A DNA stretch of 64,000 nt from Parcubacteria group bacterium Greene0714_7 (GTDB lineage Bacteria; Patescibacteriota; Minisyncoccia; Phycocordibacterales; Phycocordibacteraceae), in NCBI GenBank assembly GCA_007378985.1, contig VMHB01000001.1:252-64251 (forward strand), read 5' to 3'. Of this stretch, positions 11,700 through 62,964 are shown piece by piece. Positions within the stretch are counted from its first letter, which is position 1; each line of letters starts with the position of its first letter. Under the pieces are notes generated by a model, which saw only the letters and a list, made by a program, of their open reading frames with translations, was not told the origin of the DNA and searched no databases. The position numbers and the translations under genes were made by a program.

Positions 11700-12304
11700 T
11701 TATGGATGATAAAAAGTTCTGGAAAGGAAGATGGAGAGGGAGTTTTATTCTGACACCCAATCCTTTTGCTAAACGTGCATATGTATTAATGAAAAAGAAA
11801 CATGTAAAACGAGTTCTCGATCTTGGATGTGGAGACGGTAGGGACTCAATATATTTTGCTCGTAAAGGAGTCGCCGTTGAGGCATTTGATTTTTCTGAAA
11901 GCGGTATTGAATCCTTAAAAAAGAAGAATCCCAGCATCAAGGCGCACATTGGGGATATTCGGAAATTGCCATTTAAGAAAAATTCATTTGATGCTGTCTA
12001 CGCACACCTTAGCTTGCATTATTTTTCTGATTCAGAAACTGAGAAGATATTTTCTAAACTACATGCCGTGTTAAAGAAAGGCGGATTACTTTTTGTTAAG
12101 TGCAAATCAACTGACGACCTTCTGTTTGGAAAAGGAAAGAAGGTAGCTGAAAATACCTATCGAAGTGGCCATGTTCGGCATTTCTTCACTAAAGACTATA
12201 TGGCAAAACAGCTCAATACTTTTAAGGTTCTTCGGCTTAAGAAGAACTCTTCTTCATATGCATCCTCGAAGTCATCTTTTATAGAAGCGATTGCACAAAA
12301 ATAA
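11693..12304 (+). CDS. Class I SAM-dependent methyltransferase
   Basis: VLDLGCGDGRD matches methyltransferase motif I. Overlaps the purL end by 7 nt and the purQ start by 14 nt. Confidence 0.75.
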   Translation: MVIMDDKKFWKGRWRGSFILTPNPFAKRAYVLMKKKHVKRVLDLGCGDGRDSIYFARKGVAVEAFDFSESGIESLKKKNPSIKAHIGDIRKLPFKKNSFDAVYAHLSLHYFSDSETEKIFSKLHAVLKKGGLLFVKCKSTDDLLFGKGKKVAENTYRSGHVRHFFTKDYMAKQLNTFKVLRLKKNSSSYASSKSSFIEAIAQK

Positions 12305-13094
12305 TATGAAAACTACTCTCTCAAAAAAGGTTCGCGTTCTTGTCTTTTCCGGCTATGGCCTCAACTGTGAAGAGGAGGCGCGCTATGGTTTCGAGCTTGC
12401 AGGGGCAGATGCTGAAATTGTGCACATTAATGACGTCATTGATGGGAAGGTTAAGCTCGAAAAATATCAAATTCTTGCATTCCCTGGAGGCTTTGCATAT
12501 GGGGATGACACTGGTTCGGGTAAGGCATATGCAAACCGTGTAAAAAATCATCTCTCGAAGCCTTTGCAGAAATTTATCAAAGAAAAGAAGCTGATCATAG
12601 GAATCTGTAATGGTTTTCAAATCCTTACACAAATAGGACTTTTGCCAGGCGCACTTACATTCAATGAGTCCAATCGCTATTCTGATAGATGGGTTGATAT
12701 GGAAGTTGAAGGTACGAGCCCTTGGCTAAAAGGGATCAAGAAACTATCAGCACCTATTGGACACGGAGAGGGGAGGTATGTGGCTGATGCAGATACTCTT
12801 CTCAATCTAAAGAAAAAAAATGAAGTAGCACTTCGTTATGTGAAAGGTGAGACGGCAAACTATCAAGACTTGCCTGCAAACCCGAATGGCGCAACAGAAA
12901 ATATTGCTGGCGTACTTTCCCATGAGGGAAGAGTGTTTGGTTTGATGCCACATCCCGACCGTGCACTTTTTACAACAAATCTTCCACACTGGCCGATTCT
13001 TAAGGATCGTTCAAAGCGTTCTGGGGAAATTTTTCCTCAGTATGGTGCAGGTCTCCAGATATTTAAAAATGGAGTGGACTACTTCAATAATTGA
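12291..13094 (+). CDS. purQ: Phosphoribosylformylglycinamidine synthase subunit PurQ (glutaminase)
   Basis: GICNGFQIL with catalytic Cys. HPDR/HPE region. Confidence 0.9.
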   Translation: MHKNNMKTTLSKKVRVLVFSGYGLNCEEEARYGFELAGADAEIVHINDVIDGKVKLEKYQILAFPGGFAYGDDTGSGKAYANRVKNHLSKPLQKFIKEKKLIIGICNGFQILTQIGLLPGALTFNESNRYSDRWVDMEVEGTSPWLKGIKKLSAPIGHGEGRYVADADTLLNLKKKNEVALRYVKGETANYQDLPANPNGATENIAGVLSHEGRVFGLMPHPDRALFTTNLPHWPILKDRSKRSGEIFPQYGAGLQIFKNGVDYFNN

Positions 13095-13282
13095 CTTACC
13101 CGAAGCTGTTGATACCATTACTGTATGATCTTGTATTTTGTAGCAACCAGCGGAGTAATGATGGTAATGATGTTCTCAATGAGAAGGCTGGTTTTGCGCA
13201 CGGTACACATTTAGTTCACAAAGCTCTCGGACAAAACCAGCCTTCGACCCACGAGGGCTTTTTTAAATCAAAACAAAATATG

Positions 13283-13474
13283 TCGAATCTTGAATCAAGA
13301 AATATTACTCACCCTCACCTCGAGTCAGTTTGTGAAATATGTAATGGCACAGGCTACAAAAGTAAAAGCCACAGAGAATATTACATACTCGGCAACCCGG
13401 CATGCCATTTAGAGATACGAAATGTGCCGTGCCCAAAGGGTTGCTTAGGAAAAATTCTTTACCCTAACGGATAG
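13283..13474 (+). CDS. Small Cys-rich hypothetical protein (two CxxC-like pairs). Alternative long start at 13091.
   Basis: CEICNG..CPKGC pattern. Lies downstream of a terminator-like hairpin at 13248-13275. Confidence 0.25.
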   Translation, partial: SNLESRNITHPHLESVCEICNGTGYKSKSHREYYILGNPACHLEIRNVPCPKGCLGKILYPNG

Positions 13475-13742
13475 ATTAGTCACGCGTGATATTCACTTGG
13501 CTAGACTTTTTGTCGACGTCTATCACGCTCGTCACGAATGCGTCTTTTGAATTCTCCAAAATTCTCAGCAAGTCTTTCTGCTTGATCTAAAAGCGCTTCG
13601 AGTGCTGGTATCTCTATACCGCTGAATAGTGGGTCAGGATCCCCAAGGTCTTTGTGTTCTGTTCGTTCACCCATAGTCTGCCGATACTACGGTATAGCCT
13701 TTATTGGGTCAAATAGTGAAGCCTGCTATAATAAAAAAAGAT

Positions 13743-14267
13743 ATGGCACACGCACAAGTTGGCATCATTATGGGATCGGATTCGGACTTGCCGATAATGA
13801 AGGTAGCCCTTGAAGTACTCCATGATTTAGGAATTGAATCTGAAATAACTGCGCTTTCTGCCCATCGTGCCCCCGAAGCTGTTGCGGAATATGCAAAGAC
13901 CGCGGTTGAAAGAGGGTTGAAAGTGATTATTGCAGGAGCAGGCGTTGCTGCACACCTCCCAGGAGTTATTGCTGCTTTCACCCCACTCCCTGTGATTGGT
14001 GTTCCAATAAAAAGCTCTGGTACCGCAGGCATTGATTCACTGTTTGCAATCGCACAAATGCCCCCAGGAGTACCCGTTGCAACTGTTGCAATAAACGGAG
14101 CAAAGAACGCAGGTATTCTTGCCGCACAGATGATTGGCACTGGCGACTCCGCCACCCGTGAAAAAATAGTTGCATTTAAAGCAAAGCTGGAAAAAGAAGT
14201 TTTGGACAAGGCTCAAAAATTGGAAGAAAAAGGATTCGAACGTTACATCAAAGAAAACCTCTCGTAG
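13743..14267 (+). CDS. purE: N5-carboxyaminoimidazole ribonucleotide mutase PurE
   Basis: GIIMGSDSD..SAHR..AGGAAHLPG motifs. TATAAT at 13726-13731 lies just upstream. Confidence 0.9.
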   Translation: MAHAQVGIIMGSDSDLPIMKVALEVLHDLGIESEITALSAHRAPEAVAEYAKTAVERGLKVIIAGAGVAAHLPGVIAAFTPLPVIGVPIKSSGTAGIDSLFAIAQMPPGVPVATVAINGAKNAGILAAQMIGTGDSATREKIVAFKAKLEKEVLDKAQKLEEKGFERYIKENLS

Positions 14268-14366
14268 ACGCCAGCTCCCATTAGCTCCTTTTCCCGTTCG
14301 CTTTTATTTTCCCCATTTTTTCTTTTTCTTAACTTGTCTAATTCGCGCGAATGGTAGAATAATTTT

Positions 14367-14633
14367 ATGAATGAGAAGGAGTTGGAGAGGGTATTGAAAG
14401 CATCGGCAAATCGGCGACGGCTTGCGATCATTAAATTTCTTAAAAAACAGAAAGAAGCCTCAGTTGGAGATATAGCGACAGAAATAAAACTTTCCTTCCG
14501 TGCAACCTCAAAACATTTAGCCCTTCTTACTCACGCAGGGATTATTGATCGGGAGCAGAGGGGGCTCCAGATGTATTACTCGATTATATCCAATCTTCCC
14601 GAAGTAGCTCGACGCATTATTGCTCTCTTGTAG
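14367..14633 (+). CDS. ArsR/SmtB-family HTH transcriptional regulator
   Basis: Winged-HTH signature (VGDIATEIKLSFRATSKHLALL). Confidence 0.8.
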   Translation: MNEKELERVLKASANRRRLAIIKFLKKQKEASVGDIATEIKLSFRATSKHLALLTHAGIIDREQRGLQMYYSIISNLPEVARRIIALL

Positions 14634-14636
14634 TTT

Positions 14637-14676
14637 CAAACTATTCGCTTATTCGCACGAATAAGCGAATAGTTTG
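14637..14676. repeat. Perfect 19-bp inverted repeat with a 2-nt centre (CAAACTATTCGCTTATTCG ca CGAATAAGCGAATAGTTTG). Could be an operator or a terminator.
   Basis: Read directly. Starts 3 nt after the arsR stop. No T-run follows. Confidence 0.6.
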
Positions 14677-14748
14677 GTGAGGGTGTGCGTGTGCGGTGAT
14701 TGAGTGTAAGGGTTTAAGTTAGAGCATTTTTTCGGGTATAGTATCCCT

Positions 14749-15876
14749 ATGACTTCCGACCAATCAGCGTATGCGAAAGCAGGGGTGGACTATACGAAGC
14801 TAGAGCCGTTCAAGCAGGCGATGATTGCGGCGGGGAAGCGCACGACTAGTTTCCCAAACAAGAGAAATGTATTTATTGCAGAAGATGTGATGCATGCGCA
14901 TGGCGCAGTGTATGAATATAGAGGCAAGGAAGAGCATATTTGGTGTACGACGCAGGAAGGACTTGGAAACAAAAACTGGATTGCTGAGTGGATGTATCAG
15001 CATGAGGGCACGGGCAAAACTTATTACGACGCCATTGCTATCGACACAGCTTTGATGATTGTGAACGATGTTATTGCACAAGGGGCGATGCCAGTGGTTT
15101 TTTGTGATCACATTGATGTAGGTACAAGCGAGTGGTTTGCAGACGATAAGAGGAACAAAGATTTAGCGGATGGTTTTTATAAAATATGTGAAGAGGTAGG
15201 CATGGCGCTTCCAGCAGGGGAGTCAGCACCTTTGAAATATTTGTTGAAATCAGAACCCCCAGTAACGTCGGCACCTTCTCTTTCAGGCTCGGTGACGGGC
15301 ATCATTTCTCCAAAGAGTCGTCTTATTACAGGGAAAAAACTTGGAGTAGGTGATCACATCATTGCGGTTGCATCGTCGGGGTTGCACTCTAACGGCGTTT
15401 CATTAGTTATTCAAAAGGCACTTGAATTGCCAGAAAAGTTTTTAACAAAACTTCCAAACGGCAACACACTTGGAGCTGAGGCACTCATTCCTACACGCTC
15501 GTACGTTGCACTCATTGAAGCTTTGCTTGAAGCAGGTATTGATATTCATGCGCTCCTCCCTGGAACGGGGGACGGCGTAGGGAAGCTGGCATTTGATAAG
15601 CGTTCTTTTACCTACCGTGTTCATTCTTGGCTCAAGGTTCCAGATCTGTTTATGTACTTTAAAGATGTGCTCAATGTGCCTTTGAAAGATTGCCTCAAAA
15701 CATTCAACTGGGGCGCAGGGTATTACATTTTTGCATCAGCTTCAGAGGTGGAAAAAATAATTTCAATTGGTACTAAGGCTGGCTATACACTTGCAGATGT
15801 TGGCATCGTGGAGGAAGGCAAACGAGAAGTTATTTTCGAGCCTGAAAATATAACCCTTCCTCCTCCGGGGGAATAG
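14749..15876 (+). CDS. purM: Phosphoribosylformylglycinamidine cyclo-ligase (AIR synthetase) PurM
   Basis: AYAKAGVDYTK N-terminus and a PurM-type AIRS domain. Confidence 0.85.
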   Translation: MTSDQSAYAKAGVDYTKLEPFKQAMIAAGKRTTSFPNKRNVFIAEDVMHAHGAVYEYRGKEEHIWCTTQEGLGNKNWIAEWMYQHEGTGKTYYDAIAIDTALMIVNDVIAQGAMPVVFCDHIDVGTSEWFADDKRNKDLADGFYKICEEVGMALPAGESAPLKYLLKSEPPVTSAPSLSGSVTGIISPKSRLITGKKLGVGDHIIAVASSGLHSNGVSLVIQKALELPEKFLTKLPNGNTLGAEALIPTRSYVALIEALLEAGIDIHALLPGTGDGVGKLAFDKRSFTYRVHSWLKVPDLFMYFKDVLNVPLKDCLKTFNWGAGYYIFASASEVEKIISIGTKAGYTLADVGIVEEGKREVIFEPENITLPPPGE

Positions 15877-15885
15877 CTTCTTCTT

Positions 15886-16647
15886 ATGTTTGAAAAAATT
15901 ATTAGCACTATGAAAGAAATTTTTGGAGAGACTAATGAATTTGTGCGCTCTACACAAATGGCACTGGAAGAACGCATAACTTCTCCGTTCTATGGGTATT
16001 TTTTTGTATCTTGGTTTTTGTGGAACTGGCAATTATTCTATGTCGCTCTTTTTTTAGACCAGAAAAATATTTTTGAAAAAACTGGTTTATTACGAAATGA
16101 ATATCTAATATCTTTATTTCCAACTTCTTACAGTTTTGAATTCTGGCTACGTTTTTTTATTGGCCCTTTACTACTTACTGTTTTTTTCTTTTGGCTTTTT
16201 CCTTATGGGACAAGGTTGTTTTTTAGAAAAAGTATTAAAAATCAAAACGCCCTTAAAATAATTGAATTACAGGAAAGTCAAAAAGAAACACGGGAAGAAA
16301 AAGGCTTAGTGAAAGAAGAGACCGCTCTCATAAAAGAGAAAATTGAAAAAGCCAAAGAAGAAAAAAAGGCTGAAATTGAAACTCCTGAAGTTTTATGGGA
16401 AAAAGAGTTTGTGAGTTTATTTGAGAATAATTCTGATGAATTTAGTAAATTAGAACAATTACAAGAACATGCTTATGGTAATTCCTATCTTGCTGATTGG
16501 CAGATTAAGGCGATTTCGTTTTTCCATGTTATTGGTCTTTTTACATTTGAAAGCGGGAAACAACTGATAAATTTAACAGATAAAGGAAAATTCTTTTTAA
16601 AAAGATTTATTGAAACAAGAAAGGGAGGTAATCTTATTCCATTTTAG
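15886..16647 (+). CDS. Hypothetical membrane protein with a Lys/Glu-rich coiled-coil segment
   Basis: Transmembrane helices followed by KEEK-rich repeats. Inserted between purM and purC. Confidence 0.45.
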   Translation: MFEKIISTMKEIFGETNEFVRSTQMALEERITSPFYGYFFVSWFLWNWQLFYVALFLDQKNIFEKTGLLRNEYLISLFPTSYSFEFWLRFFIGPLLLTVFFFWLFPYGTRLFFRKSIKNQNALKIIELQESQKETREEKGLVKEETALIKEKIEKAKEEKKAEIETPEVLWEKEFVSLFENNSDEFSKLEQLQEHAYGNSYLADWQIKAISFFHVIGLFTFESGKQLINLTDKGKFFLKRFIETRKGGNLIPF

Positions 16648-16655
16648 AAATATCC

Positions 16656-17585
16656 ATGAATGTCATTAAAGAAACAAATTTCGAAGGTTTAGGAAAGAGA
16701 ACACAGGGGAAGGTGCGGGATATTTATGAGCAACCGGCACAACTTCTTTTGGTGACGACGGACAGGCATTCATCTTTTGACAGGATCATTGCGCACATTC
16801 CACATAAAGGTGCGGTCTTGAACCTCATCAGTGCATTTTGGTTTGAGCTTACGAAAGATATTGTTCCTAATCAGCTCATTGAAGTGCCTGACTCGAATGT
16901 GATTGTTGCAAAACGAGCACAGCCTTTCTTGGTAGAGGTAGTGGTGCGAGGATATTTGACGGGTGTTACCGACACCTCTATATGGACCAACTACCAGAAA
17001 GGGAAGCGAGACTTCGGAGGAATTACCTTGCCCGACGGAATGACAAAGAACATGCCACTTCCTCGTGCGATCATTACGCCAACAACAAAAGCTGGGCACG
17101 ATGAAAACTTAGATCTTTCGGAAGTGGTACCGCGAGGACTTGCAACTGCAGAGCAGTGGGCTGAGATGCAACGTGCTGCACTTGCCTTGTTTGCTCGTGG
17201 ACAAGAGCACGCATCCTCAAAAGGATTTATTCTTGTTGATACAAAATATGAGTTCGGTCTTCATGATGGGAAAGTCATTCTTATCGACGAAGTGCACACG
17301 CCTGATAATTCACGCTACTGGCTCAAGAGTTCTTTTGAAGAGCGTATAGCGAAAGGGGAGGAGCCAATGGCGTTTGATAAAGAGTTTTTGCGTATTTGGT
17401 TTAAAGAAAACTGCGACCCATACAACGATGCCACTCTTCCAGAAGCTCCAGAGGAGATGGTGACGGAGCTTTCTCGCAGGTACATTGAGATATACGAAAC
17501 TCTCACGGGAGCTAAGTTTTCGGTAGACGAGAGCATGCCCCCACTAGAGAGGATGCAAAAGAATCTTGAGAAGTATATGCTGTAA
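16656..17585 (+). CDS. purC: Phosphoribosylaminoimidazole-succinocarboxamide synthase PurC
   Basis: GKVRDIY, LLLVTTDRHSSFD and VVRGYLTG motifs. Confidence 0.9.
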   Translation: MNVIKETNFEGLGKRTQGKVRDIYEQPAQLLLVTTDRHSSFDRIIAHIPHKGAVLNLISAFWFELTKDIVPNQLIEVPDSNVIVAKRAQPFLVEVVVRGYLTGVTDTSIWTNYQKGKRDFGGITLPDGMTKNMPLPRAIITPTTKAGHDENLDLSEVVPRGLATAEQWAEMQRAALALFARGQEHASSKGFILVDTKYEFGLHDGKVILIDEVHTPDNSRYWLKSSFEERIAKGEEPMAFDKEFLRIWFKENCDPYNDATLPEAPEEMVTELSRRYIEIYETLTGAKFSVDESMPPLERMQKNLEKYML

Positions 17586-26449: not shown

Positions 26450-26508
26450 CAAACCCTTTGAGTATCTAAAAACATATACGCACATTCTTGTGTGCATATG
26501 TTTCCAAA

Positions 26509-26558
26509 CCCCCTGTATAGTATAAAATAGCGGTCGCTATTTTATCCTATACAGGGGG
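26509..26558. repeat. Palindromic repeat element, family 2, copy 1. Roughly 24-bp arms with one mismatch (CCCCCTGTATAGTATAAAATAGCG gt CGCTATTTTATCCTATACAGGGGG).
   Basis: Read directly. Flanked by CTGAGATAC. Confidence 0.7.
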
Positions 26559-28490: not shown

Positions 28491-29029
28491 TCTTAGGCAT
28501 CACGGGAACGATTGGTGCCGGTAAAGGGACTGTCGCAACATATCTTGAGGAAAAAGGATTTCGACATATTTCTGTTTCAGCTTTCTTAGAAAATGAGGCG
28601 TTACGCCGCGGGCTCGTTCCAACGCGGATTGTGTGTCGTGAGATTGCAAATGAATATCGTGCAAAGCATTCAACCGCACTCGTGGGGGCAGTGCTTGGTG
28701 AAATTAACTCGGTGAAAGAAAATGTTGTCGTTGAATCATTACACTCAGTTCCTGAAGTTTTGTATATTCGCAATCTTGGTGGGAAGGTTCTTTCTGTTGA
28801 TGCGCCACTATCTGTTCGCTATGAACGAATACAAAGGCGCGGTGAAGAAAAAGACGCTGTATCTTTTGATGATTTCCTAAAAGAGCAAAATAGGCAAATG
28901 GTTTCTGAAAACAGAGATGAAAATAATTTGAAGGAAGCCATTGCTATGGCAGATTTTCATATTGATAATGCTGAAATTTCCGAAGGGCTTTTTATGCAGA
29001 TTGATGATATTCTTCAAAAGATTTCATGA
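28487..29029 (+). CDS. P-loop nucleotide/nucleoside kinase family protein (CoaE-like Walker A)
   Basis: ILGITGTIGAGKGTV. Overlaps the ABC gene by 4 nt. Confidence 0.5.
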   Translation: MILGITGTIGAGKGTVATYLEEKGFRHISVSAFLENEALRRGLVPTRIVCREIANEYRAKHSTALVGAVLGEINSVKENVVVESLHSVPEVLYIRNLGGKVLSVDAPLSVRYERIQRRGEEKDAVSFDDFLKEQNRQMVSENRDENNLKEAIAMADFHIDNAEISEGLFMQIDDILQKIS

Positions 29030-29748
29030 ACCCATTCGATTCCCTCAAGGCAAGTCCTCTTCAATTTCGCTACCCTGGCCGTTTTCTGATCATTGGCAAA
29101 GATGCTGATTCGTATGTGGTTGTGTATGGCGCAACAGGGCGGAGCCCATCGAGCTTAGCGAGACGATTTGTACAAAAAGGGAATGGTATTTTTATGGGCG
29201 GAATAGATGATACGGTCAAGCAGGGTAATCAGGATCTCCTTGAATACCCAGCGGTACGCATATTTGATAACGGTATCGTGGTTGCAAATGGTAAGCATAT
29301 CGAACAGATTACCGAGCTTCAGTCGCGTGATGCTCGTCAACAACTTTCGTATGCGTTAGCTGAAGAAGCATATGAGCCGGATGAGTATCGGACACCGCGC
29401 ATTACCGGATGCATTATTGAGTCTTCAAAAGGAATGGATGGTGCACTTCACATTGTGCGCTCTGCATCCGATGGTATCGACCATGCATCATGGAGTGTGT
29501 CTTTTGAGAGTGGAAAGGGTGAGTATGTTGGCACCTATATAGGAGAGGATGTGAAACCAACTCCTTCATTTGCGGGCGTTCCGCTTTCCGTACCTCTTCA
29601 ATTTGGTTCTGCAAAGAGTACTGCGCAGGCGATATTTGATTCGTACACTCCACCTCAAGGAGGAATTGATTATCGTGTTGGTGTTATTGCCGTTTATAAG
29701 AAACTTGGAGAACAAGCAGAAATTGCTATAGTAAATCGTATCTCATGA
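29026..29748 (+). CDS. purO: Archaeal-type IMP cyclohydrolase PurO
   Basis: GRFLIIGKDADSYVVVYGATGRS and YEPDEYRTPRITGCI resemble the PurO family (MYLGRIL..G.. / TPRIA). Confidence 0.6.
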   Translation: MNPFDSLKASPLQFRYPGRFLIIGKDADSYVVVYGATGRSPSSLARRFVQKGNGIFMGGIDDTVKQGNQDLLEYPAVRIFDNGIVVANGKHIEQITELQSRDARQQLSYALAEEAYEPDEYRTPRITGCIIESSKGMDGALHIVRSASDGIDHASWSVSFESGKGEYVGTYIGEDVKPTPSFAGVPLSVPLQFGSAKSTAQAIFDSYTPPQGGIDYRVGVIAVYKKLGEQAEIAIVNRIS

Positions 29749-30221: not shown

Positions 30222-30375
30222 AAAACTTCCAGCTTTTAGGTGTCGGGTGTCAGATTTCAGGCGATACCTCATCGTGTCCGTAAGTGATGTTTCATCGCCT
30301 CCGTAGGGAACAGGCTTCGTTAAGTCCATAGGGATCATAGGAAAATATTCTTTATTTTTCTCTGAGATACGAAAA

Positions 30376-30424
30376 ACCCACTGTATAGTATAAAATCACG
30401 ACCGTGATTTTATACTATACAGGG
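30376..30424. repeat. Palindromic repeat element, family 2, copy 2. About 88% identical to the reverse complement of copy 1.
   Basis: CCCACTGTATAGTATAAAATCACG accg TGATTTTATACTATACAGGGG, with CTGAGATAC adjacent. Confidence 0.7.
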
Positions 30425-30508
30425 GTGATAGGCAGGGGTGAGAGAAGCGGGTGGCTTTACATATTTAAAATTCAAAATCTTCTTAACCTCTCTAATTTCT
30501 CTAAACAC

Positions 30509-46724: not shown

Positions 46725-46809
46725 GGAGGCGTCGGATAGCGGTTTATTCCACCACCTTGGAAAGGTGGCGTACCGAAAGGTACCGAGAGTTCGAATCTCT
46801 CCGCCTCCG
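46725..46809 (+). tRNA. tRNA-Ser (anticodon GGA), type II with a long variable arm
   Basis: Acceptor GGAGGCG/CGCCTCC, anticodon loop TTGGAAA, variable-arm stem GTACC/GGTAC, T-loop TTCGAAT. No encoded CCA. Confidence 0.8.
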
Positions 46810-46815
46810 CAATCG

Positions 46816-46854: not shown

Positions 46855-46986
46855 GCGCGAGGCGGAGAGATTCGAAGTGAGCATCGGGACCCGCGCTAGC
46901 AAGCGTGGGTGATGCGAGGTGGCTAGGCGGAGATCCGAGCGACGGCGAGGACCGAGCGCTTAGCCGAATCTCTCCGCCTCCGCCAA
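46855..46986. repeat. tRNA-Ser 3'-end-derived structured repeat, unit A. A 16-bp terminal stem (GAGGCGGAGAGATTCG / CGAATCTCTCCGCCTC) ending in ..CCGCCA.
   Basis: The last 20 nt match the tRNA-Ser T-stem and acceptor 3' strand. Confidence 0.5.
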
Positions 46987-47020: not shown

Positions 47021-47168
47021 TGGCGGAGGCGAGCAATGCATCTGCATGCATTGCGTGAGAGATTCGAATGCCGGAACCATGTCGCTTGCGACAGGTGAGG
47101 CCGGGCTGGCGCACTTAGCGAGTCCCCGAGCTTAGTGACGGGAGCCGAATCTCTCCGCCTCCGCCAAA
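47021..47168. repeat. tRNA-Ser 3'-end-derived structured repeat, unit B. Terminal helices GGCGGAGGCG/CGCCTCCGCC and GAGAGATTCG/CGAATCTCTC, with an internal hairpin GCAATGCAT-ctg-CATGCATTGC.
   Basis: The 3' 25 nt are identical to unit A. Confidence 0.5.
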
Positions 47169-54436: not shown

Positions 54437-56251
54437 ATGAAAAATATCCGTAATTTTTCTATCATTGCTCATATAGACCACGGGAAGTCTACTCTGGCTG
54501 ATCGCATGCTTGAGGTGACTAACACCGTACCTACTCGTAAGATGCGTGAGCAGGTTTTGGATCAAATGGATTTGGAGCGAGAGCGTGGCATTACTATCAA
54601 GATGCAACCCGTTCGAATGAACTACACTCTGAACGCTACAAACTACGTTCTTAATCTTATCGACACTCCAGGGCACATAGATTTTGCGTATGAAGTATCG
54701 CGCGCGCTTACTGCTGTCGAAGGCGTCCTTCTCTTAGTTGATTCGACACAAGGTATTCAAGCGCAGACACTCGCAACACTTGCCATGGCCAGAGACGCTG
54801 GGTGTGTCATTATTCCCGTTTTGTCTAAAATCGATATGCCAGCATCGAGAGTGCCTGAGGTTCGCGGAGCTCTGGCGCGACTTTTGAATGTTGAGGAATC
54901 GGAAGTCTTATCAGTCTCAGGAAAAACAGGAGAGGGGGTGGCAGAATTACTTGTCGCCATTGTTGAGCGTGTGCCACCTCCTACCACTTCATATCCTAGG
55001 GCAGGGCAGGGAGGGAGAGCGCTTGTGTTTGATTTTTCATATTCAGAACATCGAGGGGTGGTGGCGTATGTGCGTGTGACTGATGGGGAGCTCCGTACTA
55101 AAGACACAATCTCTTTCATGGCAGTGGGAAAGAAAATGACTGCACTTGAGACGGGATGGTTAGTGCCAGCGGAATTTCCTACCCCATTTCTTTCAGCGGG
55201 CGACATAGGATATGTGGTGACGGGAATAAAGGAGCCTGGAGTTGCGCTGGTGGGTGACACTATTAAGGCAGGAAACTCTACCTTGCCCGCCTACGAGGGC
55301 TACAGTACTCCTAAGGCTGTGGTGTGGGCCTCTTTGTACCCTGACAGCCAAGATGGATTTACGCTTCTTAAGCAGGCACTTTTACGACTTAAACTCTCGG
55401 ACGCAGCACTTTCCTTTGAAGAAGACGGCTCTTCAGTACTTGGAAAGGGTTTTCGGTGTGGTTTCTTGGGTATGCTCCATATGGAAATTGTGACTGAACG
55501 TCTAACACGCGAATTTTCTATTACCCCAGTCATCACTACGCCCTCAATTATGTATGAGGTAACTGATACAAGGGGTAAGACAGAACAAATTTACACACCA
55601 ACACAATTTCCTCCGCACGGCATGATTGCGTCAGTTCGTGAGCAGTGGGTGAATATCGCAATTATTATTCCACCTTCCTACCTGTCACCGATGACACAAT
55701 TGCTCTATGAATACGAAGCAACAATACATTCCGCCGATCTTTTTGGTTTATCAGGATATGGAGATGACAGACTTCTCATTAAAGCTGAGATGCCACTTCG
55801 TGAATTAATGCGTGGATTTTTTGACCGTTTGAAAAGCGTGTCTTCTGGTTTTGCATCGCTCTCGTATGAGTTTGGAGAGTTTCGTCCCGCAACCGTTACA
55901 AGGCTCGATGTCCTAGTGGCAGAAGAGCTAGTGCCTGCATTTTCACGCATTATTTCGGAGCGTCGGGTTGAAGAAGAGGCTCGTGCACTTGTTGAAAAAC
56001 TTGCAAATACTTTACCTCGTCAGCAATTTGTTCTTAAAATACAATCACAGGCGAACGGTCGTATTATTGCATCACGCTCTCTCTCGGCTATGCGTAAAGA
56101 TGTGACGAGTGGTTTGTACGGTGGAGATGTTTCAAGAAAAAAGAAGGTGCTTGAAAAACAGAAAAGAGGAAAGGAGCGACGAGGAGGGCATGCAAAAGTA
56201 CAAATACCACCAGAGGTATTTTTGAAAATGATAAAACCAGACAGTAACTAG
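54437..56251 (+). CDS. lepA: Elongation factor 4 (LepA)
   Basis: IRNFSIIAHIDHGKSTL and DTPGHIDF. LepA C-terminal domain. Confidence 0.95.
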   Translation: MKNIRNFSIIAHIDHGKSTLADRMLEVTNTVPTRKMREQVLDQMDLERERGITIKMQPVRMNYTLNATNYVLNLIDTPGHIDFAYEVSRALTAVEGVLLLVDSTQGIQAQTLATLAMARDAGCVIIPVLSKIDMPASRVPEVRGALARLLNVEESEVLSVSGKTGEGVAELLVAIVERVPPPTTSYPRAGQGGRALVFDFSYSEHRGVVAYVRVTDGELRTKDTISFMAVGKKMTALETGWLVPAEFPTPFLSAGDIGYVVTGIKEPGVALVGDTIKAGNSTLPAYEGYSTPKAVVWASLYPDSQDGFTLLKQALLRLKLSDAALSFEEDGSSVLGKGFRCGFLGMLHMEIVTERLTREFSITPVITTPSIMYEVTDTRGKTEQIYTPTQFPPHGMIASVREQWVNIAIIIPPSYLSPMTQLLYEYEATIHSADLFGLSGYGDDRLLIKAEMPLRELMRGFFDRLKSVSSGFASLSYEFGEFRPATVTRLDVLVAEELVPAFSRIISERRVEEEARALVEKLANTLPRQQFVLKIQSQANGRIIASRSLSAMRKDVTSGLYGGDVSRKKKVLEKQKRGKERRGGHAKVQIPPEVFLKMIKPDSN

Positions 56252-56281
56252 GGTTTAGGGTATAGCGTTTAGTGTTTAGGG
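56248..56281. repeat. Family 1 repeat copy R4 (CTAGGGTTTAGGGTATAGCGTTTAGTGTTTAGGG)
   Basis: Supplies the lepA TAG stop codon. Confidence 0.7.
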
Positions 56282-56308
56282 AAGCACACCTTCAATACAA
56301 TACGAAAT

Positions 56309-56938
56309 TCAAAATTGTTTTGCGCGAGCAAGCATTTCCGGATAGATTTTACGCAAGATGTTCATAGTGTCTGAATTATTTGCATACTCTCCACTCTTTT
56401 TTCTTATAGCTTCAACAAGTTCATCTCCTATTCCAAATCGTCGCCACATTTCACAGGCATCATTGATTCCATACCGAGAGGGCTCTCGATGGGTCTCTGA
56501 GAAAATTTTATTATATTGCCTCACTTCTTTTTCTAACTCACCGTTTGGTGTTTCAACATATTCAAGAGCAGGCAGGTAATCTGTGAAATTAAATTTTCTT
56601 ATGTCATCAATATCCTGTAAGACTTTAAGCGCACTTCTTTTGATCCAAGTCTCGCTATTTTGACCTTTAATTCCCTTAAAGGCATCGGGAATCCATTCTG
56701 TCGTTATCTGATATTGCATATTGTCACAGACGAGGTGTACGAACCAGCCTTTTTTAAAGTCATCTAATTTAAAAAATGCATCATCTAAATCGGTAGGATG
56801 CGTGACTGTACGATCAATACCTGTTACATATCTACTATCAGGATAGAGAGTCCCAGCTATATATTTCTGCGTATCAGAAACACCGTACTTTTCTTTCAAA
56901 TCTAATGCGAACCGGATATGTGTAGCGGCGAGTGCCAT
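56309..56938 (-). CDS. Hypothetical protein
   Basis: ORF flanked by the inverted family 1 copies R4 and R5. Confidence 0.5.
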   Translation of the reverse strand: MALAATHIRFALDLKEKYGVSDTQKYIAGTLYPDSRYVTGIDRTVTHPTDLDDAFFKLDDFKKGWFVHLVCDNMQYQITTEWIPDAFKGIKGQNSETWIKRSALKVLQDIDDIRKFNFTDYLPALEYVETPNGELEKEVRQYNKIFSETHREPSRYGINDACEMWRRFGIGDELVEAIRKKSGEYANNSDTMNILRKIYPEMLARAKQF

Positions 56939-56983
56939 ATAAACATTGTATCAGGGGCAGTAAGTAGCTTTAGAGTCAGATTT

Positions 56984-57020
56984 CCTCTAAACGCTAAACC
57001 CTAGTGGCTACCCGCTAATT
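56984..57020. repeat. Family 1 repeat copy R5 (CCTCTAAACGCTAAACCCTAGTGGCTACCCGCTAATT)
   Basis: Inverted orientation relative to R4. Confidence 0.65.
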
Positions 57021-57141
57021 AAAGACTGGAAAGTAGAGCAAGATCATACTTGCAATGACCAAGACCGCTACAACGCTCCAGACTATTTGGACCTTTCCTT
57101 TGTGTTTTTTATCGAACAACATAGAGGCAGTATACAATGCG

Positions 57142-57212
57142 TTAGCCAATAGCCACTAGGGTATAGGGTCTAGGCTCTCCCTAATAACTAGTGGCTATAC
57201 CCTAATGGCTAA
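57142..57212. repeat. Family 1 repeat copy R6 (TTAGCCAATAGCCACTAGGGTATAGGGTCTAGG...ACTAGTGGCTATACCCTAATGGCTAATTC)
   Basis: Nearly identical to R1 in its first 30 nt. Confidence 0.7.
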
Positions 57213-59962: not shown

Positions 59963-60700
59963 TTATTTTTTTCTTCTTCTCATAAATATCTTTTCCCACC
60001 AAAGTGGACGGGTCAGACTTTTGATACGTTCAAGTGCAAGTAGTACGAAAATGATACCAAACCACACGCCCAAGAAAACCGTGAGTGTAGCACCTGATCC
60101 ACTAGTGATTATAAGGAAATTAAAGAATGCATGCAACAGAATTGCGAGGATAACTCCTATGATGCCGTACCAAATTTTTTGTATTCGTTCTCGATAGTAT
60201 GCAAATGCGAGTGCTCCACCAATCACCGATGATGAGAGGACGTGTACTAATGTTGCTCCGATAAAACGAAGATTTCCAGACACTAAGCTTTCAAAGAATT
60301 GTCCATTTGCGAGAGGAGTGAAAATAAAAAGCGTGTTTTCGAGAGCAGCGAAGCCCAAAGAAACGGTGATGAGGTACATTGGAAAATCAATAGGTTCATC
60401 GGCATCGCGCTTTCGGAGAATCATTACATATGCAATTAAGAATTTTGTAACTTCTTCAATGCCTGCCCATATGAGGATGAGTGGAAAGCTCATATCGAAA
60501 TACATCGCAGCGACTTGCTGGAAGGGAAGAACAATGAGGACTCCCACCATACCCGACGTAAATGCTAGGAAGATGAGTTTTCTAGGTTCTGGGCGTTTAG
60601 AGTCTTCAAAGAGCCAAAAGGTAAGCCAAATGAGTGTTGGTATTAAGCTCAAGAGAAATGCCACGATAGCTGATTCAGTTCCTGAAAGGATGGGGAGCAT
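59963..60700 (-). CDS. PrsW-family intramembrane protease
   Basis: Polytopic membrane protein with EE..K and FAALEN..H motifs, as in PrsW/CPBP-like proteins. Confidence 0.65.
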   Translation of the reverse strand: MLPILSGTESAIVAFLLSLIPTLIWLTFWLFEDSKRPEPRKLIFLAFTSGMVGVLIVLPFQQVAAMYFDMSFPLILIWAGIEEVTKFLIAYVMILRKRDADEPIDFPMYLITVSLGFAALENTLFIFTPLANGQFFESLVSGNLRFIGATLVHVLSSSVIGGALAFAYYRERIQKIWYGIIGVILAILLHAFFNFLIITSGSGATLTVFLGVWFGIIFVLLALERIKSLTRPLWWEKIFMRRRKK

Positions 60701-60720
60701 ACGGATATTCTAACGCATTG

Positions 60721-60803
60721 ATTAGCCACTAAGTGTTAGCCACTAGCCATTAGGGAAGTATGCGATAGTTTCAGAACCCTAAACCCTAATGGCTATACCC
60801 TAG
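60721..60803. repeat. Family 1 repeat copy R7 (ATTAGCCACTAAGTGTTAGCCACTAGCCATTAGGG...CCCTAAACCCTAATGGCTATACCCTAG)
   Basis: Overlaps the last codons and the stop codon of valS. Confidence 0.7.
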
Positions 60804-62964
60804 TTTTTGGCCAGGGAGCAACCATTAATAGCTTGGTCTCCTTTTGAGGAAGATATGTCCATATCTCTTCAGTTACGAATGGCATGAATGGATGGAGGAG
60901 CCTTAGGAAGTGGTTCAGTGTCTCGTAGAGGAGTTTTTGCCTGGAGGCTTTCTCTTTTTCATTAGCTCCCTTGAGTATTGGTTTTGATGCTTCAATTATT
61001 TCGTCCGCAAATCTGTGCCAGATGAAGTGGTAAAGAATATCAAACGCAAGGTCGATTCTGAATTTTTCAATGTTTTCAGAAACACTCTTTGCCATGTCAG
61101 CTACTTCTATAGCTATCTGCGTATCTTCTCTTGTATACGGAGCATCTTGGGTATTACCACCACCATTCTCAAGGACAAACCGAGCTATGTTCCAAATTTT
61201 ATTTGCGAAGTTTTTATATCCCCGTATTTTTTCTTCAGAAATTTTACTATCGGTTCCTGGTGCCATGCCCGCAATTAAAGAAACACGCACTGCATCCATA
61301 CCGTACTTTGCCGCCATATCCAATGGGTCAATGTTGTTGCCTAAGGATTTTGAAATCTTTCGGCCTTGTCCGTCACGAACTAATCCATGAAGATAGACTT
61401 TTTTGAACGGCACCTCATCGAGGAGGAATCCACTCATGAGAATCATGCGGGCTACCCAGAAGAAGAGAATATCGTATCCAGTTTCAAGGATTGATGTCGG
61501 GTGGAATGTTTTTAAATCTTTTGTTGTGTTAGGCCAGCCCAAGGTCGAGAATGTCCATAATCCAGCAGAGAACCACGTGTCCAAAGTATCTGGGTCTTGT
61601 TCCCACCCGGCGCCTTCTGGTGCAACTGCCCCAACATATGTCTCTTCACCTCGATACCATACTGGTATACGATGCCCGAACCATATTTGGCGTGAAATAC
61701 ACCAATCACGAAGGTTGTCTATCCAGTGGAAGTATGTTTTTTCGTATCTCTCAGGTGTAATGTCTACTGCCTTACTCTCGACGGTCTCCCGCATCATTTT
61801 TCTTAGGGTTGTTTTCTTTCCATTTTTTTCAAACTCAGCATTAACCCCCACAAACCATTGACGCTTTACTTGAGGTTCTATAGTGCCTCCACCACGACTG
61901 TTTGTTGCAATGTTGTGGACATATTTCTCATCAATTTTATCAATGAGCCCTTTTGCTTTGAGCTTCTCAATGATTAGTGGACGAGCTTTTTTGATATGGC
62001 TCCCTTGAAATTCTCCTGCTATAGGGAGGAGAAGTCCGCGGTCGTCTATGACTTGCTCTATATCAAGCCCGTGGCGTTTCGCAATCTCGAAGTCCACCAC
62101 CGAGTGCGCTGGTGTAATGGTCATTACACCCGAACCCATTTCCATGTCAGCTGCTTTGTCTTTAATGATTGTTGCAGTGATGGGTCCGTTTATCCACTCA
62201 AGATCAAATGTCTGTCCATGTTTCCATTCGCTGTACCTCGTATCATCTGGATGCATCACAACATATTTATCACCGAACTTTGTTTCAGGGCGTACAGTGC
62301 CGATGACAAATGGTCCGTATTTGAAATAGTAGAATGGAACGGATTCTTCTACGTAGTCCATTTCATCATCCGAAACGGTAGTTTGGAGTTTTGGGTCCCA
62401 GTTTACGATTCGGTATCCGCGATAAATGAGACCAGCATTGTACATTCGTACAAAGGCCTCCATGACGGCATGGTATCTCGCGCTATCCATAGTGTAGGCG
62501 TAGCGAGAAAAATCTAGTGAAGCGCCGACACGTTTCATCTGTTCAATAATAGTTTTTTCGCTCTCTTTCACGAATACATCTATTCGTTTCAAAAGCTCAT
62601 CTCGTCCAAGGTCATGACGGGTTTTTTTCTCTTTCTTATAGATTTCTCCCTCCACCTTTGACTGGGTAGCGATTGCAGCAGAGTCGGCGCCAGGAATCCA
62701 GAGTGTTTTTTTGCCACTCATGCGAGCATGGCGAATGAGTATGTCTTCAATAACGAGCATCAATGCTGAGCCCATATGGAGAATGCCGGTAACATTTGGT
62801 GGGGGAAGTATCATTGAAAATGACTCCGCGCGTTCTTCCGTACCTTGTGGTGTAACAATAGGTGGGAGGTTGTCGGGATTGAAATAGCCACTTTCTTCCC
62901 AGCGTGTATAGATGGCCTCTTCCGTTTCTTTTGAATTATATGGTTGTAGAAATTTTGGATCCAT
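60793..62964 (-). CDS. valS: Valine--tRNA ligase (compact form)
   Basis: PPPNVTGILHMG (HIGH region) and KISKSLGN (KMSKS region). Confidence 0.85.
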   Translation of the reverse strand: MDPKFLQPYNSKETEEAIYTRWEESGYFNPDNLPPIVTPQGTEERAESFSMILPPPNVTGILHMGSALMLVIEDILIRHARMSGKKTLWIPGADSAAIATQSKVEGEIYKKEKKTRHDLGRDELLKRIDVFVKESEKTIIEQMKRVGASLDFSRYAYTMDSARYHAVMEAFVRMYNAGLIYRGYRIVNWDPKLQTTVSDDEMDYVEESVPFYYFKYGPFVIGTVRPETKFGDKYVVMHPDDTRYSEWKHGQTFDLEWINGPITATIIKDKAADMEMGSGVMTITPAHSVVDFEIAKRHGLDIEQVIDDRGLLLPIAGEFQGSHIKKARPLIIEKLKAKGLIDKIDEKYVHNIATNSRGGGTIEPQVKRQWFVGVNAEFEKNGKKTTLRKMMRETVESKAVDITPERYEKTYFHWIDNLRDWCISRQIWFGHRIPVWYRGEETYVGAVAPEGAGWEQDPDTLDTWFSAGLWTFSTLGWPNTTKDLKTFHPTSILETGYDILFFWVARMILMSGFLLDEVPFKKVYLHGLVRDGQGRKISKSLGNNIDPLDMAAKYGMDAVRVSLIAGMAPGTDSKISEEKIRGYKNFANKIWNIARFVLENGGGNTQDAPYTREDTQIAIEVADMAKSVSENIEKFRIDLAFDILYHFIWHRFADEIIEASKPILKGANEKEKASRQKLLYETLNHFLRLLHPFMPFVTEEIWTYLPQKETKLLMVAPWPKTRV

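Follow-up and report, generated by a model that had tools for sequence, protein, structure and literature searches.

Anatomy of the valS 3' end

The window analyzed here is a stretch of 64,000 nucleotides of contig VMHB01000001.1, from the uncultured Parcubacteria group bacterium Greene0714_7 (candidate phyla radiation [CPR]/Patescibacteria). Our analysis covered this ~64 kb of the genome together with ~250 kb of DNA from the same clade, and it centers on a repeat-built element at the 3' end of valS, the gene for valyl-tRNA synthetase (ValRS). The valS coding sequence lies on the minus strand at positions 60793 to 62964 and specifies a protein of 723 amino acids that ends in ...APWPKTRV. The translated product matches the NCBIfam valS equivalog model (E = 7e-253) and is 100% identical to the "valyl-tRNA synthetase" recorded for Parcubacteria group bacterium Greene0714_7; the annotation is thus correct. 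Downstream of valS, also on the minus strand, is a gene for a PrsW-like intramembrane protease (positions 59963 to 60700), identified by the NCBIfam PrsW model and by Pfam PF13367 in the source gene calls.

Between the two genes lies an element composed of two arms of 7-nt units (heptads) in inverted orientation. The whole element fills positions 60721 to 60803, the interval marked in the first-pass annotation. The first arm, into which valS reads, consists of four heptads on the minus strand (60776 to 60803): CTAGGGT (60803 to 60797), ATAGCCA (60796 to 60790), TTAGGGT, and TTAGGGT. This arm is evident in the sequence and was recovered by array scans and by a pattern match at 60777 to 60795. 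A nonrepeat loop of 19 nt (60757 to 60775, apparent from the sequence and the RNA fold) separates it from the second arm, which lies on the plus strand (60721 to 60756) and contains five heptads, TTAGCCA CTAAGTG TTAGCCA CTAGCCA TTAGGGA, inverted relative to the first arm. The second arm is supported by the sequence, array scans, RNA folding, and the pattern match. Beyond it, the block GCGTTAGAATA is invariant in all six genomes of a spacer alignment and forms the downstream edge of the variable array. This block contains TAGAAT (60707 to 60712, minus strand), a putative -10 box for prsW located 6 nt before its ATG.

The first-pass annotation had placed the last two codons (Arg and Val) and the TAG stop of valS inside a repeat copy. 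This proved correct, and the overlap reaches slightly further. On the coding strand, valS ends ...TGG CCA AAA ACT AGG GTA TAG, with the Thr-Arg-Val-TAG portion at 60793 to 60804 (minus strand). Array sequence begins with the second base of ACT and hence includes two of the three bases of the Thr codon, both following codons, and the stop (60795 to 60793), all of which fall within the first two heptad units. The valS-prsW spacer is identical in two independent assemblies, from ENA and Logan (L001 and L002); thus, the array is not an assembly artifact.

The ValRS C terminus varies with the array

We compared valS 3' ends in nine relatives, taking the conserved Trp-Pro pair (codons TGG CCN) as the reference point. 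In the window (ValRS identity, 100%), the codons that follow are AAA ACT AGG GTA TAG, giving the tail KTRV. In L003 (97% identity), they are GGA ACT AGC CAC TAG (GTSH), and in L005 and L216 (94%), GAA GCT AGC CAC TAG (EASH). L007 (94%) stops after two residues (GAG GGT TAG; EG), as does L214 (92%; GAA preceded by AAA and followed by TAG; KE), in which in-phase CAG-type units come after the stop. The longest tail is that of L215 (87%), where GAA AAT AAG GTG ATA GGT GAT AGG TGA encodes ENKVIGDR; here, reading runs 2.5 units into a (TAGGTGA)n array and ends at the TGA of a unit. At 83% identity, L010 has GAA GCT AGG GGT TAG (EARG) and L011 has AAG AGT TAA (KS). L011 has no left arm and retains only a decayed right arm. 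In more distant, array-free relatives, ValRS tails comprise 1 to 6 residues, mostly followed by TAA, and the distance between valS and prsW is ~0 to 25 nt.

Alignment of six spacers places the variation precisely. The upstream PWP and the downstream GCGTTAGAATA...ATG do not vary, and the sequence that they enclose consists entirely of array. At the 5' edge of the array, the window differs from L003 (ValRS proteins 97% identical) by exactly one 7-nt unit. The array thus supplies zero to six ValRS residues plus the stop codon, and single-heptad insertions or deletions (indels) switch which TAG is in frame. The locus directly illustrates how a stop-bearing array can rewrite the last residues of an essential protein by single-unit indels while the open reading frame (ORF) is never left open.

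Remodeling of C termini, one of two possibilities raised in the first-pass annotation, accordingly holds for ValRS, although it is confined to the last 1 to 6 nonconserved residues; the residues after WP track the array in array-bearing relatives as opposed to the KS-TAA ending of L011. Remodeling does not hold for GroES and LepA, which are unchanged (see below). Truncation of native tails was not borne out for any of the three. Canonical bacterial ValRS is ~860 to 950 amino acids long and carries a C-terminal coiled-coil domain (Val_tRNA-synt_C), a description that the window ValRS does not fit: it aligns to only positions 3 to 698 of the 860-position NCBIfam valS model. The short form is nevertheless clade-wide. 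Among the 120 best ValRS homologs, 117 are no longer than 760 amino acids, and the Pfam Val_tRNA-synt_C domain was found in none. Because the short form (~720 amino acids, without the coiled coil) is a trait of the clade, no domain was lost through the repeat, and truncation of ValRS by the array is ruled out. The protein ends 1 to 5 unconserved residues past the conserved WP in 111 of 118 homologs, and the four-residue KTRV of the window is therefore ordinary. We infer that the tail is neutral and that its changes have a negligible effect on the protein.

groES and lepA end at native stop codons

The same overlap had been noted for groES and lepA, and both cases were confirmed. The groES stop (TAG, 41933 to 41935) is the TAG of TTAGCCA, the first unit of a set of inverted heptad arrays that fills the groES-groEL spacer (41932 to 41999, plus strand). 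The lepA stop (TAG, 56249 to 56251) opens a single array of five units, TAGGGTT TAGGGTA TAGCGTT TAGTGTT TAGGGAA (56249 to 56282, plus strand), which was found by the array scan and forms no hairpin.

Comparison with orthologs separates these two genes from valS. The length of GroES is constant among all close relatives, in which the protein ends in ...ILAV(L/I)(N/S). In L088 (FW305_bin.14), groES ends TCT TAG at the same codon, and the next 137 nt are unrelated and array-free; in L092, the TAG is also at the same codon, and only an arm of opposite orientation is present, before groEL. LepA ends ...KPD(S/N)N TAG in every close relative (...KPDSN TAG in array-bearing ones). In L011 (CAYNOO01), the lepA site is empty and reads ...KPDNN, AAC TAG GGA CTA, in which only three bases separate the lepA stop from the stop of a convergent 35-amino-acid ORF. 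Because length is preserved and a TAG occupies the same codon in relatives without an adjacent array, the groES and lepA stops are native, with the arrays merely beginning at them. Orthologs that lack the repeat thus share length and stop codon with the window for groES (L088) and lepA (L011), and not for valS. A TAG stop followed by G or C may itself seed an array, as the TAGGGAC of the empty L011 site resembles a unit. The products of valS, groES, and lepA are neither truncated nor functionally altered.

A family of heptad arrays in a narrow Parcubacteria clade

The arrays share a 7-nt period and an invariant TAG followed by two G/C bases, a feature of all 25 units in seven window arrays. 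The unit consensus is N-TAG-S-S-N in this genome and N-NAG-S-N-N in sister genomes. Apart from this, the copies have no common loop, no fixed termini, and no fixed length. The seven arrays contain three to five in-phase units in head-to-tail order, as is characteristic of intergenic heptanucleotide tandem repeats (long simple sequence repeats [SSRs]). The pattern TAGCCNNTAGSSNNTAGSS occurs 6 times in the window, compared with 0.00 expected occurrences in 100 dinucleotide-preserving shuffles.

In total, the window contains eight heptad loci, seven of which are intergenic and four of which are inverted pairs; the start of five of them lies between -7 and +1 nt relative to a stop codon. Five loci were not named in the first-pass annotation: one follows groEL, one is at the stop of the 35-amino-acid ORF, one occupies a divergent promoter region, one lies in the spacer between lemA and the M48 gene, and one is inside tsaD. 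The array scan placed a single five-unit array 1 nt past the TGA of groEL (43652 to 43686, plus strand); it is orthologous in three genomes whose groEL genes stop at TGA, TAG, and TAA. The lemA-M48 spacer contains two heptads of opposite orientation (CCCTAAA CGCTAAA) followed by a copy of a 29-nt element described below (44816 to 44858, plus strand). A five-unit array on the minus strand (56984 to 57018), TTAGCGG GTAGCCA CTAGGGT TTAGCGT TTAGAGG, provides with its first TAG (57015 to 57017) the stop of the 35-amino-acid ORF. The strongest inverted pair (57141 to 57212, plus strand) lies between the divergent starts of this ORF and a DivIC-like ORF of 124 amino acids, where there is no gene 3' end. 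The family is lineage specific: eight more genomes, drawn from different studies, carry arrays at these loci, none was present at ~75 loci of more distant Parcubacteria, and the elements are thus confined to a narrow clade.

Neighboring arrays of inverted orientation can form an imperfect hairpin, and three of the inverted pairs fold better than shuffled sequences (z = -2.6 to -5.2). In the valS transcript, the arms pair at -29.4 kcal/mol (z = -2.6), the groES-groEL pair folds at -19.3 kcal/mol (z = -2.8), and the pair at 57141 to 57212 folds at -35.6 kcal/mol (z = -5.2). No fold was obtained for the pair at the stop of the 35-amino-acid ORF or for the single arrays after lepA and groEL. At the valS site, hairpin potential is retained in five genomes (-29 to -52 kcal/mol), with no structure in L011. 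Sense and antisense strands fold equally well, without a G-U signature; thus, nothing points specifically to a function in RNA.

Several established element types were considered and set aside. The arrays are not intrinsic terminators, as no T-run follows any of them, including the valS and groES hairpins, and a terminator scan returned no match at any array. groEL has a perfect terminator of its own, a separate hairpin (43724 to 43767) past its array. A search against Rfam 15 placed only three tRNAs above the gathering score and gave nothing credible at the arrays at E values of ≤1. By inspection, the G-quadruplex class of heptamers, with at least four tracts of three or more G residues per array, does not apply: GGG units are mixed with GCC, GCG, and GTG units, with three GGG tracts in 56249 to 56282 and one in 60721 to 60756. 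The consensus of an attC-like integron core (GTTRRRY) is likewise violated by GTTAGCC and GTTAGGG, and no integrase was found.

Why arrays and stop codons coincide

The geometry of the repeat bears on the overlap. Because 7 leaves a remainder of 1 when divided by 3, every reading frame meets a TAG within three successive units; in the valS arm, TAGs start at 60802, 60795, 60788, and 60781, and all three residues modulo 3 are represented. Therefore, an array that invades an ORF closes it within 21 nt, and arrays in this orientation are restricted to ORF ends and the DNA beyond them. Moreover, the native valS-prsW spacer is almost nil (~0 to 25 nt in array-free relatives), so any DNA that persists there must touch the stop codon. 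Three causes suffice to explain the overlap, namely, near-zero spacers, a TAG in every frame, and unconstrained last residues. The alternative proposed in the first-pass annotation, that the repeats insert preferentially at stop codons, was not demonstrated; the short native spacer forces contact in any case. TAG stops do occur in four of the five genes that abut arrays, compared with 23 of the 69 long ORFs of the window (33%), which is weakly unusual (P ~ 0.04 by our own binomial estimate).

As a general check only, we scanned metagenome contigs for TAG-heptad arrays; matches came mostly from unrelated organisms (GC content, 27 to 70%). In 62 of 143 such arrays, the start of the array coincides with the end of an ORF of 80 codons or more, compared with 5.7% at random positions. 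This statistic does not distinguish native gene ends from truncated genes, and it merely indicates that juxtaposition is general. In six contigs from unrelated organisms (L171, L170, L122, L112, L176, and L136; GC content, 37 to 63%), TAG-heptad arrays are dispersed, often as inverted pairs around a loop. One of these contigs (L122) carries the units of the window (TTAGCCA CTAGCCA ... CCCTAAA) around a canonical terminator, and in another (L136), (GGCTAAA)n is joined to a conserved 30-nt tail at four sites.

In-frame inserts and a nested 29-nt element

One heptad element lies in frame inside tsaD (approximately 63624 to 63698, minus strand), where it encodes ...QEVDSQQSTEQSEVPLNPKRYTLNA... and has its clearest units at 63622 to 63649. 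In the inserted DNA (CCTAAACGCTATACCCTAAAC), a loop joins a NAG arm to an opposite arm, and the would-be in-frame TAGs are CAG or CAA. The segment between the HMEGH and SGGHT motifs of the protein measures 33 amino acids in array-free Parcubacteria; 38 in L007, L214, L215, and L216; 44 in L011; and 52 to 53 in the window, L003, L005, and L010. Near-identical strains are polymorphic for the insert (52 amino acids in L005 and 38 in L216).

A second kind of repeat is nested within the arrays. This small dispersed repeat is a double hairpin of 29 nt (GCGACGCTTCGTCGGATCCGAAGGGATCA) at 43684 to 43712 (plus strand), directly after a heptad TAG, with a second copy at 44830 to 44858 (minus strand). Its general form is GCGAYSCNTSRTCG-GATCCGMAGGGATC-A, and it always directly follows a heptad NAG. 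The first stem has undergone compensatory changes (CGACG/CGTCG, CGATG/CATCG, and CGACC/GGTCG). In relatives, copies are found at ~12231 to 12262 of L007 and ~11347 to 11378 of L010, and in the valS ORF of L010, the element is part of a 26-amino-acid insert. Its loci differ between genomes, and these differing positions suggest that the element may be mobile. Arrays and the nested element can thus sit in frame inside essential genes (tsaD and, in a relative, valS) of a genome usually deemed streamlined.

Array dynamics and origin

Arrays are kept at orthologous sites down to 83% ValRS identity, with different units. Unit number and sequence vary at orthologous loci, as seen at the valS and lepA sites across eight genomes; in three genomes, the array that follows groEL comprises 5, 3, and 5 units. 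The flavor of the units is uniform among the loci of one genome and differs between genomes at orthologous loci. Units of the window and of L005 are TAGGGTT, TAGGGTA, TAGCCAC, and TAGCGTT, with TAG in 25 of 25 and 16 of 18 units, respectively; L007, L010, and L214 have TAGGTTC, CAGCTTT, and CAGGTTC, with TAG in about half of the units or fewer. Uniformity within genomes and difference between them therefore indicate concerted evolution, by exchange between arrays or by repeated reseeding. These unit comparisons also show that a stop codon in every unit is a peculiarity of the lineage of the window, the deeper constants being NAG followed by S and the 7-nt period.

The arrays are probably a slippage-prone family of heptamer SSRs, with stop overlap and the few array-encoded residues arising as by-products. 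Under this model, arrays would have come to occupy formerly near-zero-length spacers of a compact Parcubacteria genome, and the rapid gain, loss, and replacement of their units would result from slipped-strand mispairing and exchange between arrays. Whenever the edge of an array shifts into the final, dispensable codons of the gene upstream, two or three units suffice to reclose the ORF. The native ValRS would have ended one to three residues past WP; (T)RV and the stop are now array, and each heptad indel rewrites the tail. At groES and lepA, the native TAG simply coincides with the first unit. Two considerations weigh against this model. Arrays and their hairpin potential persist at orthologous sites to 83% ValRS identity while both arms change, which could mean selection for a function and not neutral slippage. 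Arrays are also newly placed inside ORFs (the tsaD loop and the 26-amino-acid valS insert of L010 that carries the 29-nt element), and such placements look more like insertion than local slippage.

Insertion is the premise of another explanation, in which a nonautonomous element like the MITEs (miniature inverted-repeat transposable elements), with inverted terminal arms, inserts preferentially at TAG or TTAG (or TA) and thereby lands on stop codons and replaces them. The four inverted pairs among the eight loci fit such an element, as does a pattern of presence and absence: the lepA site is empty in L011 and the groES site in L088, the tsaD insert differs between L005 and L216, and an array with the 29-nt element has appeared de novo inside valS of L010. 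The excess of TAG stops in four of the five genes that read into arrays also favors this account. However, the copies share no internal sequence, defined termini, or length, unit order and loops differ in all of them, and the arrays at groEL and lepA are single and noninverted. When the empty lepA site of L011 is set against the filled sites of the window, L005, and L007, no target-site duplication is visible; the TAG...CTA flanks of the site are two native convergent stop codons. Differences between orthologs take the form of whole-heptad indels and unit substitutions, and relatives without an array at groES or lepA have the TAG stops of these genes as well. Pfam searches of most of the ~69 long ORFs of the window retrieved no transposase, integrase, or REP-associated tyrosine transposase (RAYT; Y1, PF01797 type), where REP denotes repetitive extragenic palindromic sequences. 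A MITE-like origin is, in our judgment, quite unlikely.

Alternatively, the arrays could be functional cis-elements whose overlap with stop codons is incidental, serving either as a site for a multimeric nucleic acid-binding protein (one that recognizes NAG triplets 4 nt apart, as HutP does, or heptads, as does the omega repressor of pSM19035) or as an mRNA 3'-end hairpin (a stabilizer or a terminator without a U-tract). The long positional conservation of arrays and the retention of hairpin potential while both arms change speak for a function, and the TAG-type arm comes first on the plus strand in all four pairs of the window (and, by symmetry, on the minus strand as well). In addition, UAG plus 4 nt in three to five copies matches the HutP recognition motif UAGNNNNUAGNNNNUAG (PMC2425495), which all of the arrays fit, a resemblance in sequence only. 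That motif is UAG-N4-UAG-N4-UAG, and HutP also accepts XAG (PMC2425495); NAG periodicity persists in sister genomes, including at units that read CAG or AAG. Yet the same Pfam searches found no HutP, ribbon-helix-helix (RHH), or TRAP protein among the scanned ORFs, and a tblastn search for HutP in ~250 kb of clade DNA gave nothing better than E = 0.2, which is weak evidence. The arrays are not intrinsic terminators, those of lepA and groEL are unfolded, and neither a strand bias nor an Rfam match was observed. With one pair in a divergent promoter region and one array in coding sequence, no single role in RNA fits all copies. We consider a cis-acting function unlikely on balance. The specific proposal that NAG arrays are recognition sites of a putative multimeric protein (HutP/TRAP-like or RHH omega-like) that binds RNA or DNA and reads triplets four bases apart is a long shot. 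If it were true, it would imply genome-wide control of read-through or mRNA stability at gene boundaries in a CPR lineage with a reduced genome, and the uniform unit flavor within genomes and its difference between them would represent coevolution with that protein. As for chance coincidence or an assembly artifact of low-complexity sequence, repeat-rich spacers are prone to misassembly in metagenomes; nonetheless, two independent assemblies are identical, the same loci carry arrays in eight further genomes, and 6 pattern matches were found against 0 expected, leaving this explanation with next to no probability.

Relationship to known repeats

The arrays conform to a known kind of element, intergenic heptanucleotide tandem repeats; they do not qualify as MITEs, REPs, intrinsic terminators, or Rfam families. 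Cyanobacterial short tandemly repeated repetitive (STRR) sequences are reportedly tandem heptamers in the noncoding DNA of one lineage, and small dispersed repeats (SDRs) are said to be nested in phase within cyanobacterial heptamer arrays. The 29-nt double hairpin of the window, nested in heptad arrays, recalls this arrangement, although units and phylum differ. Rickettsia palindromic elements (RPEs) are said to be 100 to 150 bp long, to have a conserved sequence, and to lie in frame in essential genes, whose surface loops tolerate them. The inserts in tsaD and in valS of L010 are similar in placement, whereas the heptad arrays have no conserved sequence.

The closest published parallels concern heptamers that overlap stop codons. 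The (GGGAATC)n repeats of Xanthomonas and the (GGGGAYT)n repeats of Nostoc overlap stop codons or lie within 50 bp of them (Rehm et al. 2015, PMC4692102); they sometimes form inverted pairs capable of stem-loop formation, and their lengths vary at the same loci between sister species (PMC4692102). The window arrays resemble them in being tandem, heterogeneous 7-nt units, mostly about four per array, without association with insertion sequences (PMC4692102). They differ in that the unit contains TAG, G-quadruplexes could not form consistently (few arrays have four G3 tracts), the host belongs to the CPR, and some copies are in frame in essential genes. The TAACTGA direct repeats of marine Beggiatoaceae, some Cyanobacteria, and Bacteroidetes contain stops in all three frames (MacGregor 2015, PMC4679880). 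They overlap the stop of the upstream gene in 13 cases, a binding protein has been suggested for them, and their insertions are tolerated only at protein ends or, in reverse orientation, inside ORFs (PMC4679880). Both families are stop-bearing heptamers that overlap upstream stop codons, but TAACTGA repeats are nearly invariant, almost exclusively direct (with one indirect set), and located mostly just upstream of start codons (PMC4679880), whereas the window units are degenerate apart from TAG plus SS and frequently occur as inverted pairs.

The likeness to REPs and REPINs lies in short, extragenic, imperfect palindromes at gene ends that are often paired as inverted doublets (Bertels and Rainey 2011, PMC3116915). 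REPs, in contrast to the arrays, have a conserved family sequence and a RAYT; the arrays have no conserved palindrome, and no RAYT was found among the scanned window ORFs. The HutP site of the Bacillus subtilis hut terminator has two sets of UAG-N4-UAG-N4-UAG around the terminator hairpin (PMC2425495). It is a single regulated locus with a known protein, while the heptads occupy many loci and do not occur in canonical terminators. Heptamer repeats that overlap stop codons have thus been published before (Xanthomonas/Nostoc and Beggiatoaceae), and what is new is a TAG-heptad family in Parcubacteria; the literature searched contained no prior description of heptamer repeat families in CPR/Patescibacteria. 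With this finding, a class of bacterial repeats that is still little understood is recorded in CPR/Patescibacteria as well, and the arrays provide hypervariable markers of strains; no new mechanism is opened.

Other features of the window

The 35-amino-acid hydrophobic ORF convergent with lepA (MLFDKKHKGKVQIVWSVVAVLVIASMILLYFPVFN; 57015 to 57122, minus strand) is unannotated and conserved next to lepA in many Parcubacteria. It has no Pfam family and probably encodes a genuine small membrane protein that gene callers overlooked. Between its stop and that of lepA, the window carries orf209 (209 amino acids; 56309 to 56938, minus strand). The same spot holds a gene with a tRNA_edit domain in L005 and L006 (16371 to 16925 in L005) and a LysE gene in L215 (18619 to 19245), and it contains no cargo gene in L007, L214, L010, and L011. 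No homolog of orf209 was found at the locus of any relative, and it has no match in Pfam, PADLOC, or PHROGs; neighboring genes were also without PADLOC or PHROGs matches. Arrays as the boundaries of gene cassettes were rejected, as the L215 cargo is not flanked by arrays, and the site is thus simply a hot spot of gene gain and loss.

Sequences resembling -10 boxes lie 6 to 7 nt before the ATG of prsW (TAGAAT; 60701 to 60716), the 35-amino-acid ORF (TATACT; 57123 to 57140), and orf209 (TGATACAAT; 56939 to 56960), in each case without a Shine-Dalgarno sequence. Array-free relatives have a TACAAT box at the same position before prsW. This spacing suggests that leaderless mRNAs may be common in the group.

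CPR bacteria normally do not possess nucleotide biosynthesis, which makes a de novo purine synthesis cluster in the window (~8754 to 17585 and 29026 to 29748) unusual. It comprises FGAM synthase (AIRS/AIRS_C plus GATase_5), AIR carboxylase, an AIRS-like protein, SAICAR synthetase, and an IMP cyclohydrolase-like protein. Elsewhere, the 3' end of tRNA-Ser(GGA) (46725 to 46810) recurs twice beyond the gene (AGCCGAATCTCTCCGCCTCCGCCAA; 46962 to 46986 and 47143 to 47167), and these additional copies could be att-site-like remnants of integration or decayed tRNA duplicates.

A repeat family distinct from the heptads is represented by a 52-nt palindrome with a perfect stem (AAACCCCCTGTATAGTATAAAAT...ATTTTATCCTATACAGGGG). 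Its two copies (26506 to 26557 and 30374 to 30425) are 85% identical, lie 3.9 kb apart, and flank a block that extends from an ABC transporter to a Zincin gene. Near the start of the window, a stand-alone GIY-YIG nuclease ORF (1815 to 2072) adjoins a Pif1-family helicase with a C-terminal HTH_40 domain (2115 to 3800). GIY-YIG ORFs are found at variable positions in relatives (14222 to 14476 in L005 and 14988 to 15242 in L215), suggesting that they may be mobile genes for homing-type endonucleases.

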